64,000 nt of DNA from Bacteroidales bacterium (GTDB lineage Bacteria; Bacteroidota; Bacteroidia; Bacteroidales; UBA12077). How positions within the stretch are numbered: position 1 is the first letter of the stretch; every line of letters begins with the position of its first letter. Both the position numbers and the translations under genes were made by a program. The DNA lies in the NCBI GenBank assembly GCA_050179935.1, contig JBFXEQ010000008.1, positions 30,905 to 94,904 of the forward strand. The letters run 5' to 3'. This document shows, piece after piece, positions 7,634 through 51,898 of the stretch. The notes below the pieces were generated by a model. That model saw nothing but the letters and a program-made list of their open reading frames with translations, was not told the DNA's origin and ran no database searches.

Positions 7634-7659
7634 AAAAACCCCACTCAATTGAGCAGGGT
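7634..7659 (-). terminator. Rho-independent terminator downstream of gcvT
   Basis: Minus strand reads ACCCTGCTCAATTGAGTGGGGTTTTT. This gives an 8-bp stem (two G-U pairs), a 4-nt loop and a T-run. Confidence 0.5.
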
Positions 7660-7678
7660 CATAATTTAGAATCATTTT

Positions 7679-8785: not shown

Positions 8786-8820
8786 TATATGATAATTTAG
8801 AAGATTTTATAAATGTGCCA

Positions 8821-8828
8821 CAAAGCTA
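8821..8828 (-). promoter_or_regulatory. -7 promoter box for gcvT (TAGCTTTG on the minus strand)
   Basis: Plus strand reads CAAAGCTA, the reverse complement of TAnnTTTG. It lies 36 nt upstream of the ATG at 8785. Confidence 0.35.
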
Positions 8829-8931
8829 CTATTTTTTAAAAATAAAAATTATGTTTTACATACAATAATTATTAAATGAAAGGGCAACATTTTAAGTTAC
8901 CCTTTGATATTATTAAGATTGCAAATAAGCT

Positions 8932-11010: not shown

Positions 11011-11025
11011 GTATATCTGTTTTAA

Positions 11026-21038: not shown

Positions 21039-21428
21039 ATGGAGGAAATTATAAAAATGAAAAAAGCAATTTACACCATTACAACATTGGTAATTTTTTT
21101 AGTTTTCAGTACCGGGGCGTTTGCAAATAAAACAGGGGTTAAAATAATTGCCCCCGAAAAAGCAACTAAGGGAACTGAAATTACCATTAAGATTGAAGTT
21201 AATCACATAGGAAACACCAAAGGTCACTATACCGATTGGGTTCTGGTAAAAGTAAACGGAAAAGAATTCAAAAAGTGGGAATATAATCCCAGCAGTTTAC
21301 CTGAAAATCAGAATTTTGTTCTTGAGTTTACAATAAAAGCAGAGGAAAACATGGAAATTATTGCCGAAGGAAACTGCAACAAACACGGGTCTAAAGGAGA
21401 AAATAAAGTATTCATTAAAGTCGAATAA
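21039..21428 (+). CDS. Secreted superoxide-reductase-like (SORL / desulfoferrodoxin centre-II-like) domain protein
   Basis: It has a signal peptide. NHIGNTKGHYTDW resembles the H-x5/6-H-x-I-x-W segment of SOR, and CNKHG resembles the SOR CNxHG motif. The first His ligand (EKHVP region) is not evident. An alternative start lies at 21057. Confidence 0.45.
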   Translation: MEEIIKMKKAIYTITTLVIFLVFSTGAFANKTGVKIIAPEKATKGTEITIKIEVNHIGNTKGHYTDWVLVKVNGKEFKKWEYNPSSLPENQNFVLEFTIKAEENMEIIAEGNCNKHGSKGENKVFIKVE

Positions 21429-23908: not shown

Positions 23909-24277
23909 TTATTCGCTGATTAATTTATCTACTTCTTCTTTTGTTAATTGGTTCCAATCCGGATTAATAAATTGGTTGTTTTCGATTGTAAAATCAACTC
24001 TGAAAAATGTTTCTCTATTAAATTCAAGTTTGGTATTTTTATCGGGAGTATGTTCAATAAAAACGAAATTATTAGGATTGATTTCAAATTTATTACATAA
24101 TTCCATCGCAAGCTTTGTATTCCATTCGGTAATTGATGTTCCAGGGTTTTTATCATATAAATCGGTTGCAATGACAATTGTATTATGGGCCTTCTTAACA
24201 ATTTTCAATCCACAAATCGATGGTAAATCCCAAAGGCCTTTAAAATTATATAACTGATCTTGATATTTATTCTCCAT
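23909..24277 (-). CDS. Hypothetical protein, no recognisable family
   Basis: 122-aa ORF packed 11-14 nt from both neighbours in the operon. No motif recognised. Confidence 0.55.
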   Translation of the reverse strand: MENKYQDQLYNFKGLWDLPSICGLKIVKKAHNTIVIATDLYDKNPGTSITEWNTKLAMELCNKFEINPNNFVFIEHTPDKNTKLEFNRETFFRVDFTIENNQFINPDWNQLTKEEVDKLISE

Positions 24278-24291
24278 ATTGCAATCTGAAT

Positions 24292-25566
24292 TTAAACAAT
24301 TTTTGAGCTAACAGATTTACCAAAACTAACTTTTGACAAATCCTGACGTCTTTTCTTATAGGTACCATCTTCTATTTCTCTTGAAACAACCTGTTTAAGT
24401 AATTTAAACATTTTCTCTTCCTGTGTTTCGTCTTTATAGAAAGTATCCCAGGCATATTGATATAATTCTTGTAATCTTTCAGCACTCATGTGTTTAGGAT
24501 GATAAACTACCTGACCTGCATTATAGTTATCCCAATTATGATCAAAAATTCTATTTTGCTTAACCAGATCGACATATGCTTTAGTATGCGGAAATGGGGC
24601 AAGAACAGTAAACTCAGCTAAATCTAGATCAATCTCGAGCAAGAAGTCGATTAATCGTTTTATATCATCCTCTGTTTGATCATCAAGACCAAGAAGAATA
24701 GTTCCTTCAACTCCAATTCCGTAATCGTGATATCTCTTAACGCGTTGCTTAATATAGTCGGAAGTATCAAATACCGCCTGATAAACATACCATGCACCTG
24801 CCTGTGCTGCTAAATCGAGCACTTCGGGTTTATCTTCGATGGTATGACTACACCATTTTTTCTTAAATGGGATCATGGCTTTAAACAGCTCTTTTTCCCA
24901 TTCGGTATCCTGAGCCAATGAATTATCAACAATAAATAATCTGTTATTATCAATGGTGGCAAGCTCTTCGACTACTTTGTGTACAGGTCGTGGTCTGAAA
25001 TGACGACCACCCAAATACGATACAGCACAAGGATAGCAACTATATTTACAGCCACGTGATGCATGAAACGTATCAACCATTTGTACTCCTTTGTGATAAT
25101 ATAAATCTCTCTTATAAAGTTCACGACGTGCAGGGCCCACAATTTCGATTGGAGGTAAATCGTTCATAAAATTGTAAACTTTTTTAAGTTCACCTTTCCT
25201 GAAATCATTAAAAACCTGATCCATATGACCTTCGGATTCGCCCAGGAAAACCGAATCGGCATGTAACATGGTTTCTTCAGCATGTAACATGGTTGAGATA
25301 CCACCGAAAATAACTTTTTTTCCACGTTTCCTATATTCATCAGCAATAGCCCATCCACGTTTTACCTGTGTAGTGAGGAGCATTGAAATTCCGACAAAAT
25401 CAACATTATCGTCGTAGCGCAATTCTTCTAAGTTCTCATCAATAAACTCAACCTCAAAATCGTTTGGAATGGCAGCTGCAAAAACAATTGCACCATGAGG
25501 TGGAAGATTAAATGTTGTTTGCCCTTCGAGTTTTCTCCATTTTGGAAATACTAATTGAAATTTCAT
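24292..25566 (-). CDS. B12-binding-domain radical SAM protein (paralog 2 of 3)
   Basis: 424 aa. It has an N-terminal B12-binding-like segment (VDFVGISMLLTTQ) and the motif CKYSCYPC. Confidence 0.8.
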   Translation of the reverse strand: MKFQLVFPKWRKLEGQTTFNLPPHGAIVFAAAIPNDFEVEFIDENLEELRYDDNVDFVGISMLLTTQVKRGWAIADEYRKRGKKVIFGGISTMLHAEETMLHADSVFLGESEGHMDQVFNDFRKGELKKVYNFMNDLPPIEIVGPARRELYKRDLYYHKGVQMVDTFHASRGCKYSCYPCAVSYLGGRHFRPRPVHKVVEELATIDNNRLFIVDNSLAQDTEWEKELFKAMIPFKKKWCSHTIEDKPEVLDLAAQAGAWYVYQAVFDTSDYIKQRVKRYHDYGIGVEGTILLGLDDQTEDDIKRLIDFLLEIDLDLAEFTVLAPFPHTKAYVDLVKQNRIFDHNWDNYNAGQVVYHPKHMSAERLQELYQYAWDTFYKDETQEEKMFKLLKQVVSREIEDGTYKKRRQDLSKVSFGKSVSSKIV

Positions 25567-25573: not shown

Positions 25574-26677
25574 TTATTTTGTTTTTATTTCACAGTATTT
25601 ATAATTATTCTGCGTCATCCAGGATTTTAAAACACTGTTAATTATTGTTTTGTTTTCCTCGGGTAATGTATATTTATTTTTTTGATAATCACTTATACTT
25701 AAAAGAAAATCATTTAGTTTCAAATCAAATTCGTTAGAATAATCGATATTAAAATGCTTGTATATCGCTTTTATTATTTCTTTTGGATTTTTCTCAAATT
25801 CCTCAAATTTAATCTCGTACTGTCGCTCTTCTGGTAATTTATTAAGATCGTTCTCAATTGTATTAAGCATATCATTTAATACTTCAGATACTTCTAAAAT
25901 TGTTGGTTTTTGCCAATGAGTATTCATCGAGTTTTGTGTACCAACAATATCCCACATTCGCTGAGTTGAAGGTACTACACTGTATGGATGCCTTATGATA
26001 TGCACATACCTGGCATTTGGAAAAATCTCATTTAAAACAGGTATTCGCAATGAATGAAATGGATTTTTTATAAGAATCGTTTTAGGGCTATAGATTAATA
26101 GTTTTTTATAAAAATAAATTAATGAATCTTTCCATTTCTGCAATTTTTCATTTTTTGGTAAAAACCCTGGGTAATTTTTTAAAAAATAGCCTCCTTTTTT
26201 TGGAAAGATAACTTGCTCCAAAGGCGAATAAACTGATAATCTGAATAAAGCATATTCATCTTCCAAAGGTTCGTCTAAGCCTAACTTAACCTGATCCATA
26301 GGCCGAGTACCTTTAATCATACGACTCATAAGCGGTTCGTACGATTTACGAGAGGTAAGAAAGCTATCGGGTATTGATGCCTGAAAAACTGTTGGAGTAA
26401 CAAAGTTTTGATCTAAACTTAATAACTGATGAAGAAAAGTACTACCAGTTCTCCAATGACCAATAATAATTACGGGATTATCAGATAGTTTTTGGTTTTT
26501 GATTTTTTCTCCATAAATCTTATTCTCTTTTCGGTGAAAAATTGAAGCCCACGCTCCATTTTGAAATAAGAATAAAAAGCGAACCAGATATTTCGGGTAA
26601 ATTGAAATACCATTTCGTGCAACAAGTTTTAAGAATCTTGTTAGTCTTGTTCCCGCAATAAGATATGCGCTTTTCAT
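25574..26677 (-). CDS. Sulfotransferase-family protein
   Basis: 367 aa. GHWRTGSTFLHQLL matches the PAPS 5'-phosphosulfate-binding loop. IIRHPYSVVPS matches the 3'-phosphate-binding R-x-P-x5-S region. Confidence 0.7.
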   Translation of the reverse strand: MKSAYLIAGTRLTRFLKLVARNGISIYPKYLVRFLFLFQNGAWASIFHRKENKIYGEKIKNQKLSDNPVIIIGHWRTGSTFLHQLLSLDQNFVTPTVFQASIPDSFLTSRKSYEPLMSRMIKGTRPMDQVKLGLDEPLEDEYALFRLSVYSPLEQVIFPKKGGYFLKNYPGFLPKNEKLQKWKDSLIYFYKKLLIYSPKTILIKNPFHSLRIPVLNEIFPNARYVHIIRHPYSVVPSTQRMWDIVGTQNSMNTHWQKPTILEVSEVLNDMLNTIENDLNKLPEERQYEIKFEEFEKNPKEIIKAIYKHFNIDYSNEFDLKLNDFLLSISDYQKNKYTLPEENKTIINSVLKSWMTQNNYKYCEIKTK

Positions 26678-26704: not shown

Positions 26705-26980
26705 CTATGCCTTATTGTTTATTATAAAATCGGCAATTGTATTTACATTTTTTAATACTTCGCGGGCAAGATTCTGATCATCGATACGAACATTAAATTG
26801 TCTTTGAACAGCCATAACTAATTCAATAGCATCGATAGAATCGAGACCTAATGTATTTTCGCCTCCGAACAGTGGTATTTCATCATCAATATCAGCAGCA
26901 GCAATATCAGGAATGTTAAGTGTTTTAATAATCAGATCTTTAATCTCCAGCTTCAAATCATTTAGATTTTTTTCTTCCAT
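26705..26980 (-). CDS. Acyl carrier protein
   Basis: 91 aa. LGLDSIDAIELV is the canonical ACP attachment motif. Confidence 0.85.
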   Translation of the reverse strand: MEEKNLNDLKLEIKDLIIKTLNIPDIAAADIDDEIPLFGGENTLGLDSIDAIELVMAVQRQFNVRIDDQNLAREVLKNVNTIADFIINNKA

Positions 26981-26988: not shown

Positions 26989-28005
26989 TTAATTTAAACT
27001 TTTAACAACTAGTTTTAATTCTTTATAAAATGCCTCCTCAGCATCGGCACGATCAAGAATCATCTTACTAAGCTCGGTTAGTTTATCATGTCCCAGATCG
27101 CGGTTTTTACTAATTTTTGCAGCAAAGTAAGAAATATTTCTCCAACCATCTCCAATTTCCATCATCTTTTTTGACAAAACATCAAGTTCGGTACTATTAA
27201 ATAATTGAGCAGCTTGACGAAGAAAAGTAGCGTACATAAACCTAAAACCAGCTCCACCGGTTCCCTGATCTTCGAGAAAAATATTTATTTTGGTTATTTC
27301 GTGCGATAAATGATCTATATCGCGGGTAAGTTTTGGCCATCCAACAACTTTTCGTCCAAACATACGTATGCCTCTAATACCAATAAACGGAGGCTGAATA
27401 CCAATCATATTATTGATTGTTTCTTTAATTCCTTTGATGATAATTTTTTTTTGGTCAAACGATTGAGGAATAGAATCAATATAATACATAAATCCCTTGG
27501 GTGCTAAATATCCTTTAGCAAATCGGGCTTTTTGCAAACTACCTTTATGCAGCTTGGCAAGCTTCGGAAAATAACTATCGCTAACTATGTAATGATCGCC
27601 CTCTTTTCCTACAATAGTAATAAAATGAATATTTGCATGTACCCGCTCCCATTCAGGAATATAATCCATGTAATACAAATCAACCTGCACAGCAACAGGT
27701 ATTCCCTTTGCAATTAAAGAATCGAGCTGCTGTTCTGCTTTTTCGGGATTTCTGAATTTCTCTGATTTAAATTTAATACCAATTCTTTTGGCTACTTTTT
27801 TCCTTAGTTTACCAGGTTTTGTACGCAAAATAAACATTGGGAAATTTAAATTAGGAGTGTGCGTTAAATAACCAAAATAAAGTCCACTACCCATACCAAA
27901 AATCATTGGTTCGGTAATTGTAAGGCCTTTGTGGTTTAATAATGCAGTAAGTGTACCCGATTCGCAATGGGCAGCCATATTATGTTTAAAAGATTCAATA
28001 ATCAT
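26989..28005 (-). CDS. BtrH N-terminal-domain / DUF4872-like protein (papain-like Cys acyltransferase/peptidase fold), paralog A
   Basis: 338 aa. AAHCESGTLTALLNHKGL...IFGMGSGLYF matches the BtrH_N Cys motif. It aligns end to end with the 338-aa protein at 35843-36859. Confidence 0.65.
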   Translation of the reverse strand: MIIESFKHNMAAHCESGTLTALLNHKGLTITEPMIFGMGSGLYFGYLTHTPNLNFPMFILRTKPGKLRKKVAKRIGIKFKSEKFRNPEKAEQQLDSLIAKGIPVAVQVDLYYMDYIPEWERVHANIHFITIVGKEGDHYIVSDSYFPKLAKLHKGSLQKARFAKGYLAPKGFMYYIDSIPQSFDQKKIIIKGIKETINNMIGIQPPFIGIRGIRMFGRKVVGWPKLTRDIDHLSHEITKINIFLEDQGTGGAGFRFMYATFLRQAAQLFNSTELDVLSKKMMEIGDGWRNISYFAAKISKNRDLGHDKLTELSKMILDRADAEEAFYKELKLVVKSLN

Positions 28006-28006: not shown

Positions 28007-28507
28007 TTATTTATTTAATTCGAATTTTGTAATTACTAAACATGAGTTTTGTGTTTTGGTTTGTTTAACACGATAATTTTTTTCGTTTGGTTTTCCGTCT
28101 TTAGTTTCATTATCTCTACCCTCAACAGTTATAACCTGAAATAAGTTCGAAACCGGAACATCAAATACTTCGGCATATTTTAATAAATCTGAAACAGTGG
28201 CTTTTTGAAATCCTTTTAATTTCAAATGTTTTTTAACTTTAAATATCGATAATCCAGCTCTACTCGATAATTCGTACACATTAAAATCGTGAATTATACG
28301 GTAATACTCAATCGGACTAATTTGGCATTCTTTAAGCTGATTTAACAACGAGAACCTTAATTTTTCCATTTTATCGAAAAAATCATCGATATAATTCTTT
28401 GATAAATGCGATCCGGTAACCAATGGTCCAAATGTGCCATCCTCTTTCTCTACATAAAGCAAGAGCTGATGAGGTTCGTAATCGACAAATGCTTCCTTTT
28501 CTTTCAT
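28007..28507 (-). CDS. Small HTH-like protein, paralog A (first gene of the minus arm)
   Basis: 166 aa. The segment ISPIEYYRIIHDFNVYELSSRAGLSIFKVKKHLKLKGFQKATVSDLLKYAEVFDVPVSNLFQ aligns with 35429-35833. It has an XRE/Cro-like helix-turn-helix appearance. Confidence 0.5.
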   Translation of the reverse strand: MKEKEAFVDYEPHQLLLYVEKEDGTFGPLVTGSHLSKNYIDDFFDKMEKLRFSLLNQLKECQISPIEYYRIIHDFNVYELSSRAGLSIFKVKKHLKLKGFQKATVSDLLKYAEVFDVPVSNLFQVITVEGRDNETKDGKPNEKNYRVKQTKTQNSCLVITKFELNK

Positions 28508-28566
28508 ACCAGATTATTAATGATACGTTACTTCACAAGATACAGAATTATCAATCTTTCGGTTTG

Positions 28567-28819
28567 AAACTATTTAAAAATTCTGTTCTGTTTTCGGGTT
28601 ACTAAATTATACTAAATAAATAAATCACCAAAATTTTTAAAATAGTGTAATAAGCAGAAAATAATTAGCAAACACCTTAAAACCATCAAAATATTAATAT
28701 AACTAATACCTGATTTTAAAACTATTTTTCTGGATTTCATCAAAATATGTTTAAAAAAACCTTTTAATAAGATAGCTGTTTAATAAAAGTAAAAACTATT
28801 TATTAAATTTGCACTATTT
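28567..28819. promoter_or_regulatory. Repeated AAACTATTT motif in the divergent promoter region
   Basis: Exact 9-mer AAACTATTT at 28567-28575, 28719-28727 and 28793-28801, plus CACTATTT at 28812-28819. All lie inside the 380-bp spacer between the two arms. Confidence 0.35.
28804..28811 (+). promoter_or_regulatory. -7 promoter box for the plus-arm operon (TAAATTTG)
   Basis: Exact TAnnTTTG match, 77 nt upstream of the ATG at 28888. The context TAAATTTGCACTATTTA resembles TAATTTTGCACTTTACTA at 39146. Confidence 0.35.
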
Positions 28820-28887
28820 ATAAATTAAGGAAAATAGTCCAATTTATTGATTAACTGAATATTAATATCAAATAATATTAAATTACT

Positions 28888-33623: not shown

Positions 33624-34982
33624 ATGAAAGAGAATAAAATATTACTTATATCAGCCAACCAGCATATTATTCCATATCCAGTATATCCAATTGGGTTGGC
33701 ATATATATCAACATTTTTAAAAGAAAAACTCCCGAATTATACAATCCAGCTATCTGACCTGAATTTGTCATCAATCGAGGATGTAAAAAAGATGATATCC
33801 GAATATAATCCAAAATATATCGGTGTTTCATTCAGGAATGTTGATGATGTTAACTCCTATAACCGCGAATATTTTATTAATCATTATAAAAAGTTAATCG
33901 AATCAATCCGTGAGGTAACCAAAGCCTATATTATAATTGGCGGTTCAGGATTTTCAATTTTTCCTGAGCTTATGTATAAAAAACTAAATCCTGATTTTGG
34001 TATTTATGGCGAAGGCGAAGAAAGTTTTTTAAAACTAATTACCGCGCTGGATAATAACGATGATTATACCAATATTAGTCGGTTAATCTATTCGAAAAAT
34101 GGACAGTGTATCTTTAACAAAAAAGAAAGCTATTTCAGCGATTTGTCACTAAACTTTGATGAAAGCATCATCGATTTTTATTGGCAGCGAAGCGGAATGC
34201 TCAATATTCAAACAAAAAGAGGTTGTCCGTATAATTGTATTTATTGCACCTATCCGGTAATCGAAGGTAAAAAAGTAAGAACATTAAATACCGATAAAAT
34301 TATACAAACCTTAAAAACCCTTTATTATCAAAAAGGAATTGATTACGTATTTTTTACAGATTCAGTATTCAATATAAAAAACGAATATAATTACGAACTG
34401 GCAGAAAAAATAATTCATAGCGGGATAAAGATTAAATGGGGTGGATATTTTACATTTACAAATTTACCTGAAAATCTGCTGGTTTTACTTAAAAAATCAG
34501 GACTAAGCCATATTGAGTTTGGTACCGAATCGATATCAGACAAAAGTCTTAAAAACTATGGTAAAAACTTTACCGTAAATGATGTGTTAGAGAAATCAGC
34601 CCTCTGCAATAAACTCGAAATTGATTTTGCTCATTTTCTTATTCTTGGCGGATATGGCGAAACAGAAGAAACAGTTAATGAGACTTTTGAAAACTCAAAA
34701 AAAATCGATAGATCAGTATTCTTTCCCTTTGTAGGCATGCGCATTTATCCTGGTACAAAATTGCACGAATATGCTTTAGCAGAAGGCAAACTTAGAAAAG
34801 AAGAAGATTTGATCGAACCAAAATATTATATTTCGGACAAAGTTAATTACGACACATTAAAACAAAGAGCAAAAAATACCGGTCGCAGATGGGTATTTCC
34901 GGATGAAGATGCAAGTGAAGTTATGAATAAGTTACGACTTAAAAATAAAAAAGGACCACTATGGGAATACTTGATCATGTAA
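33624..34982 (+). CDS. B12-binding-domain radical SAM protein (paralog 3 of 3)
   Basis: 452 aa. It has an N-terminal B12-binding-like segment (YPIGLAYISTFLK...YIGVSFRN) and the motif CPYNCIYC. Confidence 0.8.
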   Translation: MKENKILLISANQHIIPYPVYPIGLAYISTFLKEKLPNYTIQLSDLNLSSIEDVKKMISEYNPKYIGVSFRNVDDVNSYNREYFINHYKKLIESIREVTKAYIIIGGSGFSIFPELMYKKLNPDFGIYGEGEESFLKLITALDNNDDYTNISRLIYSKNGQCIFNKKESYFSDLSLNFDESIIDFYWQRSGMLNIQTKRGCPYNCIYCTYPVIEGKKVRTLNTDKIIQTLKTLYYQKGIDYVFFTDSVFNIKNEYNYELAEKIIHSGIKIKWGGYFTFTNLPENLLVLLKKSGLSHIEFGTESISDKSLKNYGKNFTVNDVLEKSALCNKLEIDFAHFLILGGYGETEETVNETFENSKKIDRSVFFPFVGMRIYPGTKLHEYALAEGKLRKEEDLIEPKYYISDKVNYDTLKQRAKNTGRRWVFPDEDASEVMNKLRLKNKKGPLWEYLIM

Positions 34983-35404
34983 TTGCTGAAGGAGAAATTA
35001 TTCAGAGATTTATTCCTCAGCGAAGCCCAATGATTATGGTTGAAAAACTGCATATGGCCGAAGGAGGTAAAACCATCAGCAGTTTAACCATAAAAGCAGA
35101 AAATATTTTTTGTAAAGATGATTTGCTTGAAGAGCCCGGATTAATTGAGAATATTGCTCAAACTGCCGCATTAGGAGTTGGATTTGCATTCAGTAACGAG
35201 AATAAAAACATTCCTACCGGTTATATTGGGGCTGTTCAGAAGCTTGCTATTCATTTACTTCCTAAGGTTGGATCTACCATTATTACTGAGGTAAATGTTG
35301 AGCATGAAGTTTTTAACACTACCTTAATTAATGGTAAAATTACCTGCAACAATGAACTAATTGCCGAATGTACAATGAAGATTTTTTTAGATGAGAAAAA
35401 ATAA
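34961..35404 (+). CDS. Hotdog-fold 3-hydroxyacyl-ACP dehydratase-like protein (DH-1)
   Basis: 147 aa. FIPQRSPMIMVEKL and GLIENIAQTAAL resemble the dehydratases of APE/flexirubin clusters. The start overlaps the upstream gene by 22 nt and is uncertain. Confidence 0.65.
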   Translation: MGILDHVIAEGEIIQRFIPQRSPMIMVEKLHMAEGGKTISSLTIKAENIFCKDDLLEEPGLIENIAQTAALGVGFAFSNENKNIPTGYIGAVQKLAIHLLPKVGSTIITEVNVEHEVFNTTLINGKITCNNELIAECTMKIFLDEKK

Positions 35405-35428: not shown

Positions 35429-35833
35429 ATGGAAAAAAATAAAGTACCCCAGGACGAAGGAATCACAGCAGGAATAACCAGAGAAGTACAATATGCCATT
35501 GATGAAAACGGTAAATATATAAAAACATTTAGTAAAGGTTGGGAGCCCAAAAATATTGTTAATTCAATTGCTTGGGATCTAATAAATGAACGTGTTGAAA
35601 TGGCTGATGAGAAAATTCGTAAGGGCAAAGCCAGCCCTATTTTGCATTTTATGGAGAAACATCAGATGAATATTTCTATCCTAGCTGATTATACTGAGAT
35701 TCCCAGAATTAAAGTTTGGTGGCATTTGAAACCAAAAGGATTTAAGAACATCAAGGATGAATATCTCAAAGCATATTCACAAGTTTTTGAGGTAAGTATT
35801 GAGGAGATTATTCAATTTAATCCAACTAAATAA
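35429..35833 (+). CDS. Small HTH-like protein, paralog B
   Basis: 134 aa. ASPILHFMEKHQMNISILADYTEIPRIKVWWHLKPKGFKNIKDEYLKAYSQVFEVSIEEIIQ aligns with 28007-28507. Confidence 0.5.
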   Translation: MEKNKVPQDEGITAGITREVQYAIDENGKYIKTFSKGWEPKNIVNSIAWDLINERVEMADEKIRKGKASPILHFMEKHQMNISILADYTEIPRIKVWWHLKPKGFKNIKDEYLKAYSQVFEVSIEEIIQFNPTK

Positions 35834-35842
35834 AGTTACAAA

Positions 35843-36859
35843 ATGGATTTGAACACAAAATTAGAGTTTCAGCATATACCAGCAGGACATTGTGAGAACG
35901 GAGTAATATCGAGTCTTTTAAAATATCATGGGTTAGAATTAAGCGAAGCTATGATTTTTGGAATTGGCAGCGGACTGTTTTTTGCATATATGCCATTTGT
36001 AAAAGTAAATGGTATTCCTACAGCATCATTTAGGCCAGTGCCGGGGATGATTTTTACCCGTGCTGCGAAAAGACTTGGCATAAAAATGAAAAAACAAACC
36101 TTTCGTAATCAGCCTAAAAGAGCAATGGAAGAGCTCGACAGAACTCTTGCACAAGGACTTCCGGTTGGTATTCAAGGTGGAGTTTATCATTTATCGTATT
36201 TTCCACCTGCCTATCGCTTTCATTTTAATGCTCATAACTTAACTGTTTTCGGAAAAGAGGAGAACACCTATTTTATTAGCGATCCCGTTATGGAATACTC
36301 CACTACGTTAACATACGACGAAATGGTGAAAGTACGATTTGCAAAAGGAGCTTTTCCACCAAATGGCCGAATGTATTACCCTATAAGTATTCCTGATAAA
36401 ATAGATCTGCCATCAGCAATAAAAAAAGGCATCAAACAAACCTGCGAATACATGTTAACAATACCTGTTCCATTATTTGGCGTAAAAGGGATAAGATATC
36501 TGGCTGGCAGAATGCGGAAATGGCCAAATCGATTAGGACCCAAGAAAGCGGCTATTTATCTTGCACAAGTGGTAAGAATGTTAGAAGAAATAGGAACCGG
36601 AGGCGCTGGATTTAGATTTATTTATGCTGCCTTTTTGCAAGAATCTGCAATCGTGTTGGAAAATCCTAAATTTGAAGATTTATCGAAAGAGATGACAAAA
36701 ATTGGTGATATGTGGAGGAAGTTTTCTTCGCAAGCAGCCCAAACCTGTAAAGGAAGATCTGCAGAACCTGATGGGTATAATACAGCTGCTAATTTATTGT
36801 TAGAAATTGCAGATGCTGAAGAGAAATTATTTAAAGAACTAAGGAAAACGATTAACTAA
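35843..36859 (+). CDS. BtrH N-terminal-domain / DUF4872-like protein, paralog B
   Basis: 338 aa. Contains AGHCENGVISSLLKYHGL...IFGIGSGLFF. The shared blocks VRFAKGAFPPNGRMYY, GVKGIR, IGTGGAGFRFIYAAFL and ADAEEKLFKEL match paralog A. Confidence 0.65.
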   Translation: MDLNTKLEFQHIPAGHCENGVISSLLKYHGLELSEAMIFGIGSGLFFAYMPFVKVNGIPTASFRPVPGMIFTRAAKRLGIKMKKQTFRNQPKRAMEELDRTLAQGLPVGIQGGVYHLSYFPPAYRFHFNAHNLTVFGKEENTYFISDPVMEYSTTLTYDEMVKVRFAKGAFPPNGRMYYPISIPDKIDLPSAIKKGIKQTCEYMLTIPVPLFGVKGIRYLAGRMRKWPNRLGPKKAAIYLAQVVRMLEEIGTGGAGFRFIYAAFLQESAIVLENPKFEDLSKEMTKIGDMWRKFSSQAAQTCKGRSAEPDGYNTAANLLLEIADAEEKLFKELRKTIN

Positions 36860-37617
36860 TGCAAAAAAATCAACCCATAATTGAATTAAAACATCTGACC
36901 AAGATCTATAAAGGCTCTCATGAACCAGCAATTGATAATCTTAATCTAGAGATTGAAGCTGGCGAAATATACGGACTGCTTGGCCCAAATGGAGCAGGAA
37001 AAACAACTACTATTTCAATTCTCTGTGGACTGTTCTATCCAACTGCCGGAAATGTTTTTATTGATGGAATGGAATATGCCCATTCGGCCGAAAAAATTAA
37101 AAGTGTTATCGGCGTTGTTCCTCAGGATATAGCCTTGTACCCATCATTAACTGCAAAAGAAAATCTGATCTTTTTTGGTCATCTGTACGGATTAAAAGGA
37201 AAACAGCTTAGAGAAAGAATAAACGAATGTCTCGAATTATTTGGGTTAGAAAATTCGATGAATAGAAAAATAAAAACCTACTCGGGCGGAATGAAACGAA
37301 GAATAAACCTGATTGCAGGGATTCTTCATAAACCTAAAGTAATCTTTTTAGATGAGCCTACTGTTGGTGTTGATGTACAGTCGAGAAATGTTATTCTAAA
37401 TCACCTTAGAAATATAAATAAAGATGGAACAACTTTAATTTATACTTCTCATTACATGGAGGAAGCAGAGAATTTCTGCACACGTGTTGCTATTATAGAT
37501 GAAGGAAAAATAATTACAGAAGGTAGACCAAAAGAATTAATTAAGAATAATAAAGAATTTAAAGATCTGGAAAGTATGTTCTTGCATTTAACAGGTAAAG
37601 CCCTTCGCGACGAATAA
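36859..37617 (+). CDS. ABC transporter ATP-binding protein
   Basis: 252 aa. It has Walker A GPNGAGKTT, signature YSGGMKRR and Walker B IFLDEPT. Confidence 0.9.
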   Translation: MQKNQPIIELKHLTKIYKGSHEPAIDNLNLEIEAGEIYGLLGPNGAGKTTTISILCGLFYPTAGNVFIDGMEYAHSAEKIKSVIGVVPQDIALYPSLTAKENLIFFGHLYGLKGKQLRERINECLELFGLENSMNRKIKTYSGGMKRRINLIAGILHKPKVIFLDEPTVGVDVQSRNVILNHLRNINKDGTTLIYTSHYMEEAENFCTRVAIIDEGKIITEGRPKELIKNNKEFKDLESMFLHLTGKALRDE

Positions 37618-37627: not shown

Positions 37628-38911
37628 ATGTTACGACTATTTTCATCAATATATAAAGAGTTTCTTGTATTAATAAGAGACCGTGCAGGATTGGCAATAT
37701 TATTTCTTATGCCGCTTATACTCATAATTATTATGACACTGATACAGGATGCCACTTTTAAAACTGTAAAAGATGCCAACATATCAATGATACTGGTAAA
37801 TAACGACCGTGATAGTTTAGGCGAAGCCATAAGAGAAGGATTAATAGAATCAAAGTTCTTTCAGATTGTTGAAGAGATTGATGGTAAGAAGATAACAGAG
37901 CAAGAAGCAATAGATGCTGTAGCCCAGGGAAAATATAAAATCGGTATAATTATTCCGGAACGAGCCACCGAGACTATTCGCGGAAATGTGGATGCGCTTA
38001 TTAATAAATCGTTTAAAACGTATTCAATACCCGGGGTTAAAAAACGAACTAAAAAAAGTTCAATTGATATAACCATCTATATCGATCCAGCTACCAGTCA
38101 TTCGTTTAAAAATTCTGTAATGAGCTCGCTAAAAGAATTTACATCACAACTAGAAATCAAATTATTTTTTCAAAATTTCTCTGTTGCTTTAGCTGAGATG
38201 TTTCCCGATCAAAAAGCAGTTGAATTTGAAAGTTTTCAGACGATAAAGTATAAAGAGGTTTATGCTTCAACTACAAATAGTGAAATACTACCAAATTCGG
38301 TGCAACACAATGTTCCTGCATGGACAATGTTTGCCATGTTTTTTATTATTCTGCCATTAGCTGGCAATATAATTAAGGAACGTGACGAAGGAAGTGCTTT
38401 TAGATTAAAAACAATGCCTGGGTCGTATATTACGGTTATGTTTAGTAAGATTCTGATTTTTTTATGCGTTTCGTTTCTGCAGTTTATGCTTATGTTAATG
38501 GTTGGAAAATACCTTATGCCAGCCATGGGATTACCCCAATTAGAAATTGGCTCACATAAACTTGCACTTGTATTGTTGGCTCTTTCATCGGGATTAGCTG
38601 CAACAGGATTGGGTGTTGCGATAGGAACAATAGCTACTACCCACGAGCAATCATCAACCTTTGGAGCTGTAACTATAATTATTTTTGCGGCACTAGGTGG
38701 AATCTGGGTTCCAATTTATGTTATGCCTCATTATATGAGAATAATGAGTCAGTTTTCGCCATTAAACTGGGGATTGAGCGGATTTTATGATATTTTTCTA
38801 CGAAATGGTGATATAATCAATATTTTGCCAGAAATGTTAAAGCTATTATTCTTCTTTGCCGTAATGCTTTTAATCGCAGTAGGTTATAATAGAATTCATC
38901 GATCAAAATAA
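37628..38911 (+). CDS. ABC-2-type transporter permease
   Basis: 427 aa. It has one N-terminal TM, a large extracytoplasmic loop, then 5 C-terminal TM helices, which is the ABC-2 permease layout. Confidence 0.8.
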   Translation: MLRLFSSIYKEFLVLIRDRAGLAILFLMPLILIIIMTLIQDATFKTVKDANISMILVNNDRDSLGEAIREGLIESKFFQIVEEIDGKKITEQEAIDAVAQGKYKIGIIIPERATETIRGNVDALINKSFKTYSIPGVKKRTKKSSIDITIYIDPATSHSFKNSVMSSLKEFTSQLEIKLFFQNFSVALAEMFPDQKAVEFESFQTIKYKEVYASTTNSEILPNSVQHNVPAWTMFAMFFIILPLAGNIIKERDEGSAFRLKTMPGSYITVMFSKILIFLCVSFLQFMLMLMVGKYLMPAMGLPQLEIGSHKLALVLLALSSGLAATGLGVAIGTIATTHEQSSTFGAVTIIIFAALGGIWVPIYVMPHYMRIMSQFSPLNWGLSGFYDIFLRNGDIINILPEMLKLLFFFAVMLLIAVGYNRIHRSK

Positions 38912-45458: not shown

Positions 45459-45496
45459 TCAATTTATATTTGCAGACTAAATTAAATTATATTCCT

Positions 45497-45940
45497 ATGG
45501 ATGATAAATATATATCGATGATGCAGTTTAGTAAGCTTATGCGTGATGTTTTCAGAGTAATAAAAAAACGTATTAGCGAAACTAATCAGGAAGATTTAAA
45601 AATCACAACCGAACAAATTGGCTTGTTACATGCAATAAGTATCAAAGACGAGGATGTAATTCAGAAAGACATGGCTGAAATTATGTGTAAGGATAAATCA
45701 GCCATATTAAGGCTAATTGATTCATTAGAAGAAAAAGAGTTAATACGAAGAGTGGTTGATAAAAATGACAGACGTAAAAACTATCTAATGATAACTAAAC
45801 ACGGAGAGCGGGTTTTAAAAAACTACCTTGATATCGTTTACCAAATAATGGATGAGCTGCGAGCAGGAATCTCTGAATCTGAAATAATAACCTATAAGAT
45901 GGTTTTAACAAAGGTTATGAGCAACGCTGAGAATCTTTAA
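45497..45940 (+). CDS. MarR-family transcriptional regulator
   Basis: Winged-helix segment QKDMAEIMCKDKSAILRLIDSLEEKELIRRVVDKNDRRKNYLMITKHGE. The ORF-track start 45470 is a TTG; the ATG at 45497 is preferred. Confidence 0.8.
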   Translation: MDDKYISMMQFSKLMRDVFRVIKKRISETNQEDLKITTEQIGLLHAISIKDEDVIQKDMAEIMCKDKSAILRLIDSLEEKELIRRVVDKNDRRKNYLMITKHGERVLKNYLDIVYQIMDELRAGISESEIITYKMVLTKVMSNAENL

Positions 45941-45954
45941 TTTTTTTTGTGTTT

Positions 45955-45975
45955 ATAGTTGATATTTTCAACTAT
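45955..45975. promoter_or_regulatory. Second palindromic operator candidate upstream of the tolC-like gene (ATAGTTG-N7-CAACTAT)
   Basis: Perfect 7-bp arms at 45955-45961 and 45969-45975. It shares the core TAGTTG-N7-CAACTA with the site at 45436. Confidence 0.45.
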
Positions 45976-46058
45976 TGATACTTTAAACTATTCTAAAAAA
46001 AATATGTCCATAAATACATTACAATTCAAAATTAAATATAAAAATCAAATTACCACAA

Positions 46059-47360
46059 ATGAAAAATCATTTTAAAACAGTTTTAGTTGGTATTTCCTGT
46101 CTATGCATAATAACATCGAAAGCACAGGAACCAATAGTGCTATCGCTTGATAGTGCAATTAACTATGCAATAGAACACAACAAAACGCTTATAAACTCTA
46201 AGTTTACGATAGATAAGTCGAAACAAAAAAAGCTCGAAACAATAGCTCAGGGCTTACCACAAGTAAGCGCATCTATTGATTACACCAACTTTTTAGGAGC
46301 AGAAGCTTCTTTGCAAATGAGTGAGCAGGCACCACCCATTACCATTGAATTTAATCCTACCAGCAATTTTAAGGCGAGTGTCAGCCAGTTAATATTTAAT
46401 GGAAGCTATTATATTGGTATTCAATTATCGAACCTGGCTAAAACAATGGCTGAACAAAGCTATATTAAAGACGAAATGACCGTAAAGGAACAGGTAATTC
46501 AGGCCTACTATATGGTATTGGCTAGTGAGCGGATATTAAACATAGTTAAAGACAATAAAACAAATGCTACCACAATATATGAAAAAACAAAAAACCTCGC
46601 TAATGCAGGAATAATTGAACAAACAGATGAAAAGAAACTTTCGTTAATGGTTGCAAATGTTGATAATGCAATAAGGTCAACTGAGAGACAAGTTCAGCTG
46701 GGTTATAATCTGCTACGAATGCAATTAGGGCTTGAAGCCAATCAAACAATTCGTCTTTCGTCAAATCTTGATGAATTAGCTCAGCGGTTTATCGGAAACA
46801 GCATATTGAACAATACTTTTGCGATTGAAAACAATTTGGATTTTAAACTATTATCCTTACAAGGAGAAATGGCTAAAAAACAGGTAACTTTAAAAAAAGC
46901 CAGCAATCTGCCTTCATTAGTAGCCTTTTATTCTTATACAAAAAAAATTAAAGAGCCATTGTTTGATATGACTCCTAAAAATGTACTTGGATTAACCTTA
47001 AACATCCCTATTTTTTCGAGTGGCCAGCGATACACTCAATTGAATCAAGCAAAAATAGATTTACAAATGGTAGAGAATACCAAAGATTTAGTAACGGAAC
47101 AACTAACTATTCAGGAACAACAGCTTCGTTTTAACTATAAAAACTTGCTGGAGCAATTTGAAACACAAAAAGCAAATGTTGAAATTGCCAGGGAAGTGCT
47201 AAATCATATGAACTTAAAATATGAGCAGGGATTAGTGTCGAGCCTCGAATTAACAAGTGCAAACAACGATTATTTAACAGCAGAAACAAATTATACCAGC
47301 ACCATGCTTCAGTTACTTAATGCCGAATTATCATTACGAAAAATTAACAGTACCATTTAA
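46059..47360 (+). CDS. TolC-family outer-membrane efflux protein
   Basis: 433 aa with a signal peptide and two OEP repeats with a coiled-coil pattern. Confidence 0.85.
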   Translation: MKNHFKTVLVGISCLCIITSKAQEPIVLSLDSAINYAIEHNKTLINSKFTIDKSKQKKLETIAQGLPQVSASIDYTNFLGAEASLQMSEQAPPITIEFNPTSNFKASVSQLIFNGSYYIGIQLSNLAKTMAEQSYIKDEMTVKEQVIQAYYMVLASERILNIVKDNKTNATTIYEKTKNLANAGIIEQTDEKKLSLMVANVDNAIRSTERQVQLGYNLLRMQLGLEANQTIRLSSNLDELAQRFIGNSILNNTFAIENNLDFKLLSLQGEMAKKQVTLKKASNLPSLVAFYSYTKKIKEPLFDMTPKNVLGLTLNIPIFSSGQRYTQLNQAKIDLQMVENTKDLVTEQLTIQEQQLRFNYKNLLEQFETQKANVEIAREVLNHMNLKYEQGLVSSLELTSANNDYLTAETNYTSTMLQLLNAELSLRKINSTI

Positions 47361-47371
47361 TACAAACATAT

Positions 47372-48427
47372 ATGAACACAAAAAGAAATTTAATATTATC
47401 GATAAGTGCAGGATTATTAATCATTGCATCATCGTGCACAAAAAAGAATGACAAAGCTGAAACAGTTCAACAAACCGAAATAAAACAATCTGTTCCGGTA
47501 AAAACGATGATTGTAAAACATACAACAATTGATCGCGCCATTGATTATACAGCCTCATTAGCACCGTTCGAGGAAGTACATTTGGCTCCGTCAACACCCG
47601 GAAGAATTGAAAAGATAAATGTTGAAATAAGCGACCATGTTAGCAAAGGACAAGTAATTGCATTAATGGACAGAACAAATCTGGAACAAGCCAGAATAAA
47701 CCTAATGAAACTAGAAACAGATTATAAACGGTTAGATACATTAATGAAAACCAAGAGTATAGCCGAACAACAGTATGATCAGATAAAATCAGCATACGAA
47801 TTGGCACGAAACAGTTACCAGTTTTTACTTGAAAATACCCAGCTAAAAGCACCATTCTCAGGAGTTATTTCTGGAAAATATTTCGAAGATGGTGAAATAT
47901 ATTCAGGTGCTCCTAATACAGCAGTAGGTAAAGCCGCATTAGTATCCATTGTACAGATTAACCAACTAAAAGCCTTAATAGGTATTTCTGCTAGTTACTT
48001 TCCATATGTTTCTTTAGGAATGAAAGCTGATATTGTATCCGAAATTTATCCAGACCAATCGTTTATAGGCGAAATTTATAGGATTTATCCAACTATTGAT
48101 AATACAACAAAAACTTTTACTGTAGAAGTTCGGGTTCAGAATGACAACCTAAAACTTCGACCAGGAATGTTTTCGAAAATAAAACTTAAATTGGGTAAAG
48201 GAGAAGCAATCCTTGTTCCAACTATTGCATTAATTAAACAAACAGGAACAAACGACATGTATGTTTTTGTTAATAAAAATAATACAGCAATAAAACAACC
48301 TATTAAAATGGGTCGAATTATTGATGATAATACTGAAATTTTGGAAGGATTAAACGAAGGTGATGAGATTGTTATTGTAGGGCAAAATAAACTCGAAAAT
48401 CAAACTCCAATAACAATACATCAGTAA
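47372..48427 (+). CDS. Efflux RND periplasmic adaptor (membrane fusion protein)
   Basis: 351 aa. It has a lipoprotein signal (IASSC), then a biotinyl-lipoyl-like hairpin and beta-barrel segments typical of the HlyD/AcrA family. Confidence 0.85.
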   Translation: MNTKRNLILSISAGLLIIASSCTKKNDKAETVQQTEIKQSVPVKTMIVKHTTIDRAIDYTASLAPFEEVHLAPSTPGRIEKINVEISDHVSKGQVIALMDRTNLEQARINLMKLETDYKRLDTLMKTKSIAEQQYDQIKSAYELARNSYQFLLENTQLKAPFSGVISGKYFEDGEIYSGAPNTAVGKAALVSIVQINQLKALIGISASYFPYVSLGMKADIVSEIYPDQSFIGEIYRIYPTIDNTTKTFTVEVRVQNDNLKLRPGMFSKIKLKLGKGEAILVPTIALIKQTGTNDMYVFVNKNNTAIKQPIKMGRIIDDNTEILEGLNEGDEIVIVGQNKLENQTPITIHQ

Positions 48428-48471
48428 TTCAGTCTTTATTAAACAAAATTAATTGATAAAAAACCAATATT

Positions 48472-51400
48472 ATGAGTTTATATAGCACCGCAGTAAAAAA
48501 ACCCGTAAGTACGATCATGATTTTTATTGGAGTGATCATTTTCGGAATTTTTTCATATTTTCAATTACCGGTGGATTTTTTCCCAAAAATGGATCCGCCA
48601 TACATCTCTGTAATAACATTCTACTCTGGAGCCAACGCTGCTGATGTTGAGCAAAATATAACCCGTAAACTTGAAGATAGTTTCGGATCGTTAACCAACT
48701 TAAAAAATATGACCTCCACATCGAAAGATAATATTTCAGTTGTGATGTTAGAATTTGAGTGGGGAGCAAACCTCGATGAAGCTACCAATGAAGTTAGAGA
48801 TGCCGTTGGATTGGCAGAACGAAGCTTACCCGAAGAGGTTGAGAGTCCGACAATATTTAAAATAAGTACCAGTATGATTCCGGTTTTGATGTTCTCAATC
48901 ACATCTGAAGAAAGTTATGCAGGTATTAAGGATATTTTAGATGATAAGCTTATTCAACCATTAAACCGTATTGAAGGAGTTGGAAACATTATTCAAATGG
49001 GAGCTCCCATAAGAGCTATTATGGTTGATGTTGATCCCCGAAAATTAGATGCATATAACTTAACCGTTGAGCAGATTTCAGGAATTCTGGCAGCCAATAA
49101 TCTTAATGTACCTTCAGGTAACCTTGAAATGGGTAAATCTGATTTAGCTCTAAGGTTACAGGGAGAATTTATAAATAGCGATGTTGTTAGAAATATCATT
49201 ATAAGTAATATAAACGGTAAAACTGTATATCTTAAAGATATCGCAACGGTTCAGGATGGCCTAAAAGATGTTAAATCGTATGAACGATCGAATGGAGGAA
49301 AAAGTGTTCGTGTAATGATTCAAAAACAATCGGATGCCAATACGGTTACCGTTGCAAATAGTATTAAAGAAAAACTCGCAGAGATTGAAAAAAACTTGCC
49401 ATCCGATATTAAGGTTGAAGTACTTTTCGATTCATCTTTAAATACGGTCGATTCGATAAACAATCTTTCAGAGACATTATTGTATGCCCTGCTATTTGTG
49501 GTTATCGTAGTACTTTTTTTCTTAGGTAGATGGAGAGCCACTTTTATAGTTTCACTTTCAATTCCAATATCTCTTATTGTAGGTTTTATTTACATGTATT
49601 TATCGGGCGGAACCATAAATCTGATTACCCTTTCGTCCTTATCAATTGCAATTGGGATGGTTGTAGATGACTCTATCGTTGTACTCGAAAATATAACTAA
49701 AAAGTTTGAACGAGGAGGCTTTGCGCGCGAATCGTCAATTTATGGAACCAACGAAGTTAGTTTGGCTGTAATTGCTTCAACTCTTACTATTATAGCCGTT
49801 TTTCTTCCATTAACTATGTTAGGCGGAATGACAGGTATTCTTTTTAAACCACTTGGATGGGTAGTTACTATCACAATTGCAACATCAGTGATTGTTGCGT
49901 TAACTCTTGTTCCTATGCTATCATCAAAGATTTTACGAACTAAAAACCCTGCTAGAAATACAATTGGAGGAAAAATATACTGGTTCTCACAAGATCAGCT
50001 CGAGAAAATGGATAATATCTATGAAAAATCTCTTGCATGGTCCGTTAGTAATCGATGGACAACTATTATAATTGCTACGGTTATTTTTATTTCTTCCCTT
50101 TTTCTTATAAATGTTATTGGTACTGAATTTATGCCATCATCTGATAATGATCGAATTTCAGCTCAGGTAAAACTGGCCCAAGGAACTAACCTGGATGAAA
50201 CTATTTTGACTGCTCAATACCTCGATTCTGTTTTTATGGCAAAATACCCTGAAATTGAAATTATTTCGACAAGTGCAGGTTCGGGTGATGAAAACAGTAT
50301 GGCCGCTATCTTTTCAGAAACAGGTAATTACATTATTAATTACACTTTTAAAATGAAACCACGCGATAAACGCGAAAAAGATATCTTTCAGATTGCCAAT
50401 GAGATGCGAGGCGATATTGAAAAACGACCCGAAATTGAGAAATACTATGTTGATGCAGGAAGCTCACGTAGCTCTGGTGGAATGGGTATGGGAGGCGGAA
50501 GCGTGCTGGAGGTAAAGGTTTTCGGAAATGATTTCGACAAGACTAACATTCTTGCAGAACAAATTTCACAAGCATTAAATAAAATTGATGGAGCCAAAGA
50601 CGTTCTTGTTAGTCGCGATAAGGAAAAAACTGAACTTCAGTTGATCCTTGATAACGAGAAAATGACCTCATTTGGTTTAAATACTGCTTCAGTAGCTACT
50701 GCTATTCGTAACCGTATTACTGGGGTAACAGCAACTAAATACAAGGAAGACGGTAACGAATATGATGTTATTGTTCGGTATGATGAACAATTCAGACAAT
50801 CGACAGAAGATATTGAAAACATTAGTATTGCAACACCTTATGGAAAGATGATAAAACTAGGCGAAATAACTAAACTTAAAAGCTTTTACTCGCCACCAAA
50901 TATCGAAAGGGAAAATAAGGTTAGAGTTGTAACAGTATCATCTGCTATATCAGGTTCAGATTTGGGAACAGTAAAAACAGCTATTGAAGCAGCAGTATCA
51001 AAAATGGAGGTTCCAAGTGATGTTTCAATCGAATTTGGTGGAAGCGTTGAAGACATGCAGGAATCATTTAGTGATCTAATTTTACTAATCTTATTATCGC
51101 TTGTTTTAGTTTATATTGTTATGGCATCGCAATTCGAATCGCTTTCAGAACCGTTTATAATTATGTTTTCTATTCCCTTTGCGTTATCTGGCGTATTAAT
51201 AACCTTGTACATTTTTAGTTCAACCATAAATATCATCTCATTAATAGGTATTGTAATGCTTATAGGTATTGTAGTAAAAAATGGTATTGTTTTGGTTGAT
51301 TATACTAATCTTTTGGTTGACAAAGGCTACTCCTTGAGACAAGCGGTTATTGCTGCAGGCCGATCACGATTGCGACCCGTACTTATGACATCATTAACAA

Positions 51401-51594: not shown

Positions 51595-51604
51595 AACAAT
51601 TCGA

Positions 51605-51898
51605 ATGAAAGCAGTATTTATATCATATAATCAATCGCTAACCGAAATGGTTCAGTTAGTATTGAATAAGCACGGAATTAAAGGTTATACCCAATGGACA
51701 GATATTAAAGGTACCGGATCAGTAAAAGGTGAGCCTCATGAAGGCTCACATACCTGGCCCGAACTAAATAATGCTCATTTAACAATTGTTGATGACGCAA
51801 AAGTATCACCATTGCTCGAAAGTCTTGAGAATCTGAATAAAGAAGTCGAAAAGCATGGCTTAAGAGCATTCGTTTGGAATGTCGAAAAAACGGTATAA
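51605..51898 (+). CDS. Small cytoplasmic protein trailing the RND pump (PII-like / transporter-associated; tentative)
   Basis: 97-aa ORF starting 10 nt after the pump gene. It resembles small proteins that I recall following Bacteroidota RND operons. Family assignment is not verified. Confidence 0.45.
   Translation: MKAVFISYNQSLTEMVQLVLNKHGIKGYTQWTDIKGTGSVKGEPHEGSHTWPELNNAHLTIVDDAKVSPLLESLENLNKEVEKHGLRAFVWNVEKTV

Follow-up and report, generated by a model that had tools for sequence, protein, structure and literature searches.

The window analyzed here is a stretch of 64,000 nucleotides (nt) from contig JBFXEQ010000008.1 (positions 30,905 to 94,904; assembly GCA_050179935.1), and it carries a flexirubin-type aryl-polyene cluster of a Bacteroidales metagenome-assembled genome. 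Each of the two divergent arms of this cluster contains a pair of adjacent genes, the first coding for a small protein with a helix-turn-helix (HTH) fold (DarG) and the second for a larger BtrH-related protein (DarH). Both genes recur together in every locus where their adjacency could be assessed, and their subtypes have diverged in step. On balance, and with some reserve, we favor the view that the two pairs are ancient paralogs of one DarG-DarH module, in which DarH would act as a transacylase, DarG as its partner, and each copy in a role of its own.

Two ancient copies of the DarG-DarH pair

The pair on the plus strand (copy A) consists of a DarG gene at 35429-35833, coding for 134 amino acids (aa) that match the NCBIfam family DarG_fam, and a DarH gene at 35843-36859, coding for a BtrH-related papain-fold acyltransferase of 338 aa with the residues Cys17, His131, and Asp147. 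On the minus strand (copy B), the DarG-like gene at 28007-28507 codes for 166 aa with the architecture of copy A and some 35 additional aa at the C-terminus, and the DarH-like gene at 26989-28005 codes again for 338 aa with the same catalytic residues. The genes are 9 nt apart in pair A, where both open reading frames (ORFs) share one frame and read-through is interrupted by a stop codon, and 1 nt apart in pair B. A preliminary description of this DNA had already pointed out the four ORFs, the duplication of the pair, and the motifs HCE, IFGxGSGL, RFAKG, GTGGAGFRF, and ADAEE of the large proteins. All of these were found again, as were the genes following each pair, i.e., an acyl carrier protein (ACP) after pair B and an ATP-binding cassette (ABC) ATPase with an ABC-2 permease after pair A.

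Similarity between the copies was far above chance for both proteins. The DarH copies are 39% identical across 330 residues (E 3e-81) and both contain the Pfam domains BtrH_N and DUF4872 (E 1e-42 to 1e-60); the DarG copies are 24% identical across 108 residues (E 7e-9). The resemblance of the small proteins, previously placed in a C-terminal block of about 60 aa, is real but not confined to that block, as the A- and B-types align over their full length in an alignment of 90 sequences. B-type DarG forms a subfamily of its own with 90 clusters. The low identities (39% and 24%) and the placement of each copy in a widespread subfamily of its own show that the duplication is ancient, and a recent duplication of the pair was ruled out on the same grounds.

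Both genes have been named before. Judged by the curated cut-offs of NCBIfam release 20, the two DarH copies (460.7 bits for A and 337.2 for B) exceed the cut-off of 300 for DarH_acyl (NF053550, "BtrH-related acyltransferase DarH"). Copy A of DarG scores 135.3 bits against DarG_fam (NF053536, "DarG family dialkylresorcinol biosynthesis protein"), above the cut-off of 70, while copy B falls under it with 49 bits and is a diverged relative that can be aligned full-length. Neither copy passes the flexirubin_DarG equivalog (NF053545; cut-off 170), on which A obtains 146 bits, B 51, and a Flavobacterium ortholog (locus L072) 210. The same arrangement beside darA/darB was reported in 2014 in the arcuflavin paper on Azoarcus sp. 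BH72, with the names darD ("conserved hypothetical"), darE ("BtrH-like peptidase"), darF (ABC ATPase), and darI (ABC permease) (PMC3949708). DarG and DarH are the darD and darE of that strain, and the order of a small gene, a BtrH-like gene, and usually an ABC ATPase and permease is common to both. As a gene family, DarG/DarH is therefore not new: it is an already named, widespread part of flexirubin and dialkylresorcinol clusters. The preliminary description, which treated the pair as an unnamed HTH-like and BtrH-like duo, was right about the pair itself and missed both the name and this standard membership. No paper mentioning DUF4872 was found in our literature search.

Strict linkage of DarG and DarH

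A scan with the DarH alignment, restricted to one genome per species, retrieved 80 loci from Bacteroidales, Flavobacterium, Chryseobacterium, Draconibacterium, Rikenellaceae, Chlorobiota, and Chitinophagales. Hidden Markov model searches of all ORFs placed a DarG gene immediately 5' of DarH in each of the 78 loci that could be tested, the other two being left out of this count since a contig end lies within 160 nt. With starts taken from the longest ORF, the gap between the genes was -50 to +10 nt in 66 of the 78, most commonly -1 or -4. Look-ups anchored on DarG instead found a gene with BtrH_N and DUF4872 directly 3' in eight out of eight cases (six B-type, two A-type).

Pairing is also strict by subtype: A-type small proteins occur only with A-type large ones, and B-type only with B-type. 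This indicates an old duplication of the whole pair, after which both genes diverged jointly. Adjacency is kept where the other genes have been rearranged (L049, L066) or lost (L036), and in the Chlorobiota loci the order is DarG-DarH-ABC-ABC, followed by DarA-DarB. The proposal that the two proteins work as a unit is well supported by these observations, i.e., by adjacency seen from both genes, across several phyla and in spite of rearrangement, and by subtypes that co-diverge. Three loci (L036, at 7112-11062, L043, and L075) contain a minimal operon made of an ApeP/FabZ-like dehydratase, DarG, DarH, an ABC ATPase, and an ABC-2 permease, set among unrelated neighbors and with no DarA/DarB within 8 kb.

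The DarG family is of modest size and comprises 616 representative clusters at 50% identity. Among the best 150 of these, the representatives are nearly all stand-alone proteins of 130-170 aa, and a single multi-domain member was found, the metagenomic protein P0415 (446 aa), which has a radical S-adenosylmethionine (SAM) domain at residues 15-115 (CxxxCxxC) and a full DarG-like domain at 321-445. Fusions were considered as evidence of interaction and set aside, as this sole case joins DarG to radical SAM and not to DarH.

DarH as a putative ACP-dependent transacylase

The AlphaFold2 (AF2) model of DarH copy A (predicted local distance difference test, pLDDT, 93; predicted template modeling score, pTM, 0.90) was compared with the Protein Data Bank (PDB) using Foldseek, and its best matches all extend over the full length. 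The top match was AziU3 from the AziU2-AziU3 complex (8gs1_B and 7wuw_C; E 2e-11 to 6e-11, TM 0.67-0.69), together with CtaG (E 3e-10, TM 0.65-0.72) and CcbD, including its complex with a peptidyl carrier protein (PCP) domain (E 8e-8, TM 0.63-0.67). Across 70 DarH sequences, with A- and B-type both included, no variation occurs at H16-C17-E18, H131, and D147, nor in the motif GTGGxGxR of the helical domain. Searches of the PDB by sequence gave nothing useful with a single DarH or a two-sequence profile, and only the 70-sequence profile reached CtaG (E 0.002). In that alignment H131 and D147 fall on H128 and D144 of CtaG and, from its position only, Cys17 would be the counterpart of CtaG Cys11.

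CtaG is a proven PCP-dependent transacylase with the triad C11/H128/D144 and an acyl-cysteine intermediate (PMC7183216). Its crystal structure consists of a papain-like N-domain and a five-helix C-domain around a reaction chamber, BtrH and AsbE are named as relatives, and BtrH, CtaG, and AsbE each accept acyl groups from carrier proteins (PMC12865890). Because the fold of CtaG, AziU3, and CcbD is matched over its full length and the triad is invariant, DarH is, on the strength of the model, most likely an ACP-dependent transacylase and not a peptidase.

A peptidase acting on the small partner had been suggested earlier. In this scenario DarH would be a cysteine peptidase that cleaves the small HTH protein or is inhibited by it, a toxin-antitoxin-like variant included. 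It could draw on the place of BtrH_N in the papain/C39 clan, on a weak Peptidase_C39_2 match in copy B, on the layout of a small Xre gene overlapping a larger enzyme gene, which is classic for type II systems, and on HipB being among the fold matches of DarG. We regard it as highly improbable: the characterized relatives that share the two-domain fold over its full length are all transacylases (BtrH, CtaG, AsbE, CcbD) or the lyase-like AziU3, with no protease among them, and the pair always lies within ACP-rich biosynthetic operons. PADLOC defence models yielded just a weak generic HTH match, and a defence-system or toxin-antitoxin reading was rejected on that result.

DarH combines an N-domain carrying Cys17-His131-Asp147 with the helical DUF4872 C-domain, the same fold that encloses the substrate chamber of CtaG. 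In the proposed transacylase reaction, an acyl chain would first be loaded from acyl-ACP onto Cys17 as a thioester and then be passed from Cys17 to the nucleophile of an acceptor. Copy A, on the aryl-polyene (flexirubin-type) arm, probably off-loads a polyenoyl chain in this way; for its counterparts in ordinary flexirubin producers the acceptor would be the phenol of the dialkylresorcinol. In flexirubin, a polyenoic acid assembled on ACP has to be esterified with the phenol of the resorcinol. Given that a gene for a BtrH-class transacylase immediately follows DarA/DarB in almost every ordinary cluster, we infer that DarH is the obvious candidate for this ester-forming step. Expression of darA and darB alone yields dialkylresorcinol in E. 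coli (PMC3992019); these two genes suffice for the resorcinol, so DarG and DarH must act elsewhere.

DarG as an enzyme partner or a regulator

DarG, in our reading, probably binds DarH as a dedicated, subtype-specific partner. It would be made in step with DarH by way of the overlapping stop and start codons, and its task would probably be to dock or gate either the acidic carrier protein or the acceptor, and not to repress the cluster. A precedent for the DarH fold working with a second polypeptide is AziU3, which was solved in complex with AziU2. The AF2 model of DarG copy A (pLDDT 87) contains a β-hairpin (residues 18-36), a long helix (39-64), and an Xre-type five-helix domain (70-128). 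The latter resembles SinR, P22 c2, and C.AhdI (Foldseek; root-mean-square deviation 1.8-2.2 Å over 57-62 alignment columns), with HipB also matching, and the fold is matched as well by HTH-like non-regulatory domains of the enzymes HEPD/PhpD and HppE. Residues common to both subtypes are Y22, N42, S69-P70, L85, V96-K97, H99, F105, Y116-A117, F120, and L127, with no variation at all at H99 and Y116. Surface conservation peaks at K97, H99, and Y116, which are identical in A and B even though the two subtypes belong to different operons.

The alternative is that DarG is an ordinary Xre-family transcription factor, an autoregulator or a repressor of the pathway, which has been co-inherited with an enzyme that works alone. 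This we judge unlikely, and yet it is the strongest of the competing explanations. Besides the textbook five-helix fold, it is favored by the canonical LAxRxGIS helix-turn pattern kept in B-type sequences, by the basic helix 3, by annotation of homologs as HTH regulators in several sources, and by a weak match to Pfam HTH_26 (19.1 bits for copy A, under the gathering threshold of 22, and none for copy B). What stands in its way is, first, that the gene lies mid-operon and overlaps DarH in most of the 78 loci, in a linkage that outlasts every rearrangement. The identity of K97, H99, and Y116 in both types despite their different operons, the position of the HTH domain at the C-terminus, behind a conserved module of β-hairpin and helix, and the existence of one fusion of radical SAM with DarG likewise speak against it.

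The divergent promoter region between the two arms (28508-28887) bears on the same question. The repeat AAACTATTT occurs three times in these 380 bp (at 28567, 28719, and 28793) and is enriched there, with ACTATTT variants on both strands. It is specific to the window, being missing from most of 14 orthologous intergenic regions whose DarG-B proteins are 60-92% identical, and was rejected as a conserved DarG operator for this reason. The sole conserved element is TAAATTTGCA (28804-28813), about 75 nt upstream of FlxA and kept in 14 of 15 regions. The consensus of the Bacteroidetes promoter element is TAnnTTTG, and by its letters TAAATTTGCA looks like the -7 element of such a promoter.

The caution voiced in the preliminary description, that the small protein may not be a transcription factor, is plausible. 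In its favor are the mid-operon position, the overlap of stop and start, the cross-subtype conservation of K97, H99, and Y116, the unconserved AAACTATTT, the fold shared with HEPD and HppE, and the AziU3-AziU2 complex; opposed to it is the textbook Xre HTH fold. Several points also weigh against the partnership and the role that we favor. The HTH of DarG is canonical, with a lysine-rich third helix that is compatible with DNA binding, and the DarG genes of pair B and of L081 come first behind a promoter region, as expected of an autoregulator. Chains of 8gs1 and 7wuw did not figure among the matches listed for DarG, which gives no sign of a likeness to AziU2. BtrH and CtaG are reported to be active without a small partner, the flexirubin model of 2014 assigns the ester-forming step to another enzyme, FlxW, and our literature search found no experimental work on DarG or DarH.

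The B module and its sulfotransferase

Pair B is followed on the minus strand by the ACP gene (26705-26980; 91 aa; Pfam PP-binding) and by a sulfotransferase gene (25574-26677; 367 aa; Pfam Sulfotransfer_3, 103 bits). Sequence matches of the latter in the PDB were the sulfotransferase (ST) of CurM (4gbm, E 9.6e-10), that of an olefin synthase (4gox, E 8.7e-5), and the uncharacterized 2z6v, with no others, and the similarity to the CurM ST spans only about 120 residues. Both the curacin CurM ST and the olefin-synthase ST are activating sulfotransferases that act on acyl-ACP. An ACP lies 3' of B-type DarH in L082-L086, and a JGI contig has a 101-aa product without a Pfam match in that position. 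The sulfotransferase is retained after the ACP in L083-L086, so that the complete module of DarG-B, DarH-B, ACP, and sulfotransferase is present in the clade of the window and in the unrelated contexts L084 and L085; the sulfotransferase is absent from three other B-type contexts. The minus arm contains no thioesterase, and DarH-B fills the neighboring position.

With an ACP and a CurM-like sulfotransferase of its own, copy B probably handles a sulfated acyl-ACP intermediate. A more specific possibility, for pair B only, is an enzyme resembling AziU2/AziU3 or the thioesterase (TE) of CurM, in which sulfate is the leaving group. The sulfotransferase would sulfate a hydroxyl of the ACP-bound chain before DarH-B acts, and the product would be off-loaded by elimination, cyclisation, or alkyl transfer instead of simple acyl transfer. 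The recurrence of the module in L084 and L085, outside as well as inside the clade, is consistent with this, as are the activating STs of curacin and olefin synthase being the closest solved sulfotransferases, the AziU3 match at the top of the DarH list, and a MOT1-family anion permease beside the sulfotransferase in L085. AziU3/U2 builds its aziridine through sulfate displacement (PMC12559475; PMC12865890). On the other hand, DarH-B has the full acyltransferase triad, its carrier is a PP-binding ACP and not an amino-group carrier protein, three B-type contexts do without the sulfotransferase, the similarity to the CurM ST is short, and the sulfate could simply stay in the product. Because the triad is retained in full, ordinary acyl transfer with a sulfated lipid is no less possible. 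From this comparison, sulfate-leaving-group chemistry in pair B is a live but unproven idea, and we consider it quite doubtful.

Two observations concern genes adjoining the B module. In L085, a gene for an MFS_MOT1-family (sulfate/molybdate-type) permease (13011-14165) lies directly 3' of the sulfotransferase, in keeping with a demand for sulfate. A conserved protein of about 122 aa without a Pfam or NCBIfam match is always encoded 3' of the 424-aa B12 radical SAM protein of the module (23909-24277, minus strand, in the window; 14272-14649 in L083; 14209-14580 in L084).

Cluster context and absence of DarA and DarB

The plus arm starts with FlxA tyrosine ammonia-lyase, FlxB reductase, a ketosynthase (KS), an ACP, and an LpxL-like acyltransferase. 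These are followed by a B12-binding radical SAM protein, an ApeP/FabZ-like dehydratase, DarG, DarH, the ABC ATPase, and the ABC-2 permease, and then by a thioesterase, a set of KS, chain length factor (CLF), ACP, and KS, a polysaccharide deacetylase, and LolA2. Three ACP genes lie in this arm. The minus arm consists of DarG-B, DarH-B, ACP, sulfotransferase, B12 radical SAM, the 122-aa protein, a further ACP, a phosphopantetheinyl transferase (PPTase), and a FabD-like acyltransferase. FlxA (801 bits, cut-off 700), FlxB (409, cut-off 340), and LolA2_flexi (230, cut-off 125) all pass their family cut-offs, and the KS/ACP polyene set is also present. The ABC ATPase (36859-37617, plus strand) and ABC-2 permease (37628-38911, plus strand), both assigned by Pfam, lie 3' of DarH in most of the 80 loci. 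The radical SAM gene of the plus arm (33624-34982) matches TIGR04072 ("lipid biosynthesis B12-binding/radical SAM protein"; NCBIfam, 421 bits, cut-off 360) and forms with the dehydratase gene, whose ortholog has an ApeP-like Pfam match, the stretch 33624-35404 on the plus strand.

No homologs of DarA or DarB were found across the whole window (phmmer with Flavobacterium queries, E<=1e-5). Locus comparison showed that in one clade, comprising the window, L001-L016, L083, and L086, the TIGR04072 radical SAM occupies exactly the slot that DarA-DarB hold in Flavobacterium, Chryseobacterium, and Draconibacterium clusters; together with the ApeP/FabZ-like dehydratase it takes the position of the DarA-DarB and dehydratase genes of ordinary flexirubin clusters. 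Outside this clade, DarA/DarB adjoin DarG/DarH in most loci. Since DarA and DarB are absent here, the acceptor of copy A would have to be something other than dialkylresorcinol.

Further genes in and beside the cluster deserve mention. Three B12-binding radical SAM genes (19572-20915, plus; 24292-25566, minus; 33624-34982, plus) and a nearby desulfoferrodoxin-like gene (21039-21428) are conserved in L083, and together they suggest oxygen-independent tailoring chemistry in an anaerobe. Directly 3' of LolA2, the plus strand carries a MarR/SlyA-like regulator followed by a TolC-like channel, a resistance-nodulation-division (RND) adaptor, an RND pump, and a PG0541-family protein (45470-51898), which could be a regulator and exporter of the pigment or else an unrelated efflux operon. 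In the Bacteroidales locus L048 (2525-12421), homologs of the minus arm (101-aa ACP, PPTase, FabD-like acyltransferase, and 424-aa radical SAM) directly adjoin DarA-DarB-DarG-DarH, an arrangement that links the chemistry of the minus arm to the resorcinol branch.

Novelty and implications

Flexirubin-type pigments are a chemotaxonomic hallmark of Bacteroidota. To our knowledge, no study has demonstrated which enzyme links the flexirubin polyene and its lipid partner. DarH has the fold, the catalytic triad, and the gene context expected of such an enzyme, and in the survey it never occurred without DarG in the 78 testable loci. What is new here is the strict coupling of DarG and DarH, which makes a two-protein enzyme plausible, the cluster variant without DarA/DarB, and the sulfotransferase-linked B module. 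If DarG proves to be a subunit, this would be a clear case of the Xre HTH fold being reused as an enzyme partner, and the thiotemplated ligases of the CtaG class, defined only recently, would gain a two-protein branch. The cluster without DarA/DarB, its second pair, the CurM-like sulfotransferase, and the three B12 radical SAM genes point to an undescribed aryl-polyene lipid in anaerobic Bacteroidales.

A far-reaching combination of these ideas can be formulated, and we think it improbable as a whole. DarG-DarH would be an obligate two-subunit enzyme, i.e., a heteromeric branch of the CtaG/BtrH/AziU3 fold with an Xre subunit that does not bind DNA. At the same time, the B module would form an independent system in which ACP-bound lipids are activated by sulfate and off-loaded (by elimination, cyclisation, or alkyl transfer), operating with B12 radical SAM chemistry, and another lipid partner would take the place of dialkylresorcinol, the "oxygen-era" half of flexirubin, in the anaerobic Bacteroidales clade of the window.

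Comparison with known systems

With ordinary flexirubin and dialkylresorcinol clusters the window shares FlxA, FlxB, LolA2, and the KS/ACP set. It differs from them in lacking DarA/DarB and in having an extra, diverged DarG/DarH pair, the DarG-B of which scores below the family cut-off. DarG has in common with Xre/Cro-C1 regulators (SinR, P22 c2, C.AhdI, HipB) the five-helix fold of its C-terminal 60 residues. Unlike them, it carries this domain C-terminal to a module of β-hairpin and helix, has an invariant His in helix 3, and is encoded by a gene strictly coupled to an enzyme gene, and a conserved operator was not found in the intergenic regions compared.

DarH shares with CtaG (closthioamide), BtrH (butirosin), and AsbE (petrobactin) the two-domain fold, the Cys-His-Asp triad, a spacing of 16 residues from His to Asp, and adjoining carrier-protein genes; CtaG and AsbE, moreover, also move hydroxy-aryl acyl groups. 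However, identity is about 14%, and CtaG, BtrH, and AsbE catalyze amide formation and reportedly do so with no small partner, whereas DarH would form an ester or another bond and is always accompanied by DarG. AziU3/AziU2 of azinomycin, and likewise Vzb10/11, resembles DarH in fold, and AziU3 also works in complex with a second polypeptide and follows a sulfotransferase step, an order to which the gene context of pair B points for DarH-B. Its reaction is aziridine synthesis and not acyl transfer, and its substrate is reportedly (Kurosawa et al. 2022) held on an amino-group carrier protein, whereas the carriers here are PP-binding ACPs. Finally, the B module has in common with the ACP-ST-TE units of CurM and olefin synthase an ACP and an activating-type sulfotransferase beside a thioester-cleaving enzyme. 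That enzyme is an α/β-hydrolase TE in those systems and papain-fold DarH with DarG in the window, and the proteins of the B module are separate, whereas their counterparts in CurM and olefin synthase are domains of a single synthase.

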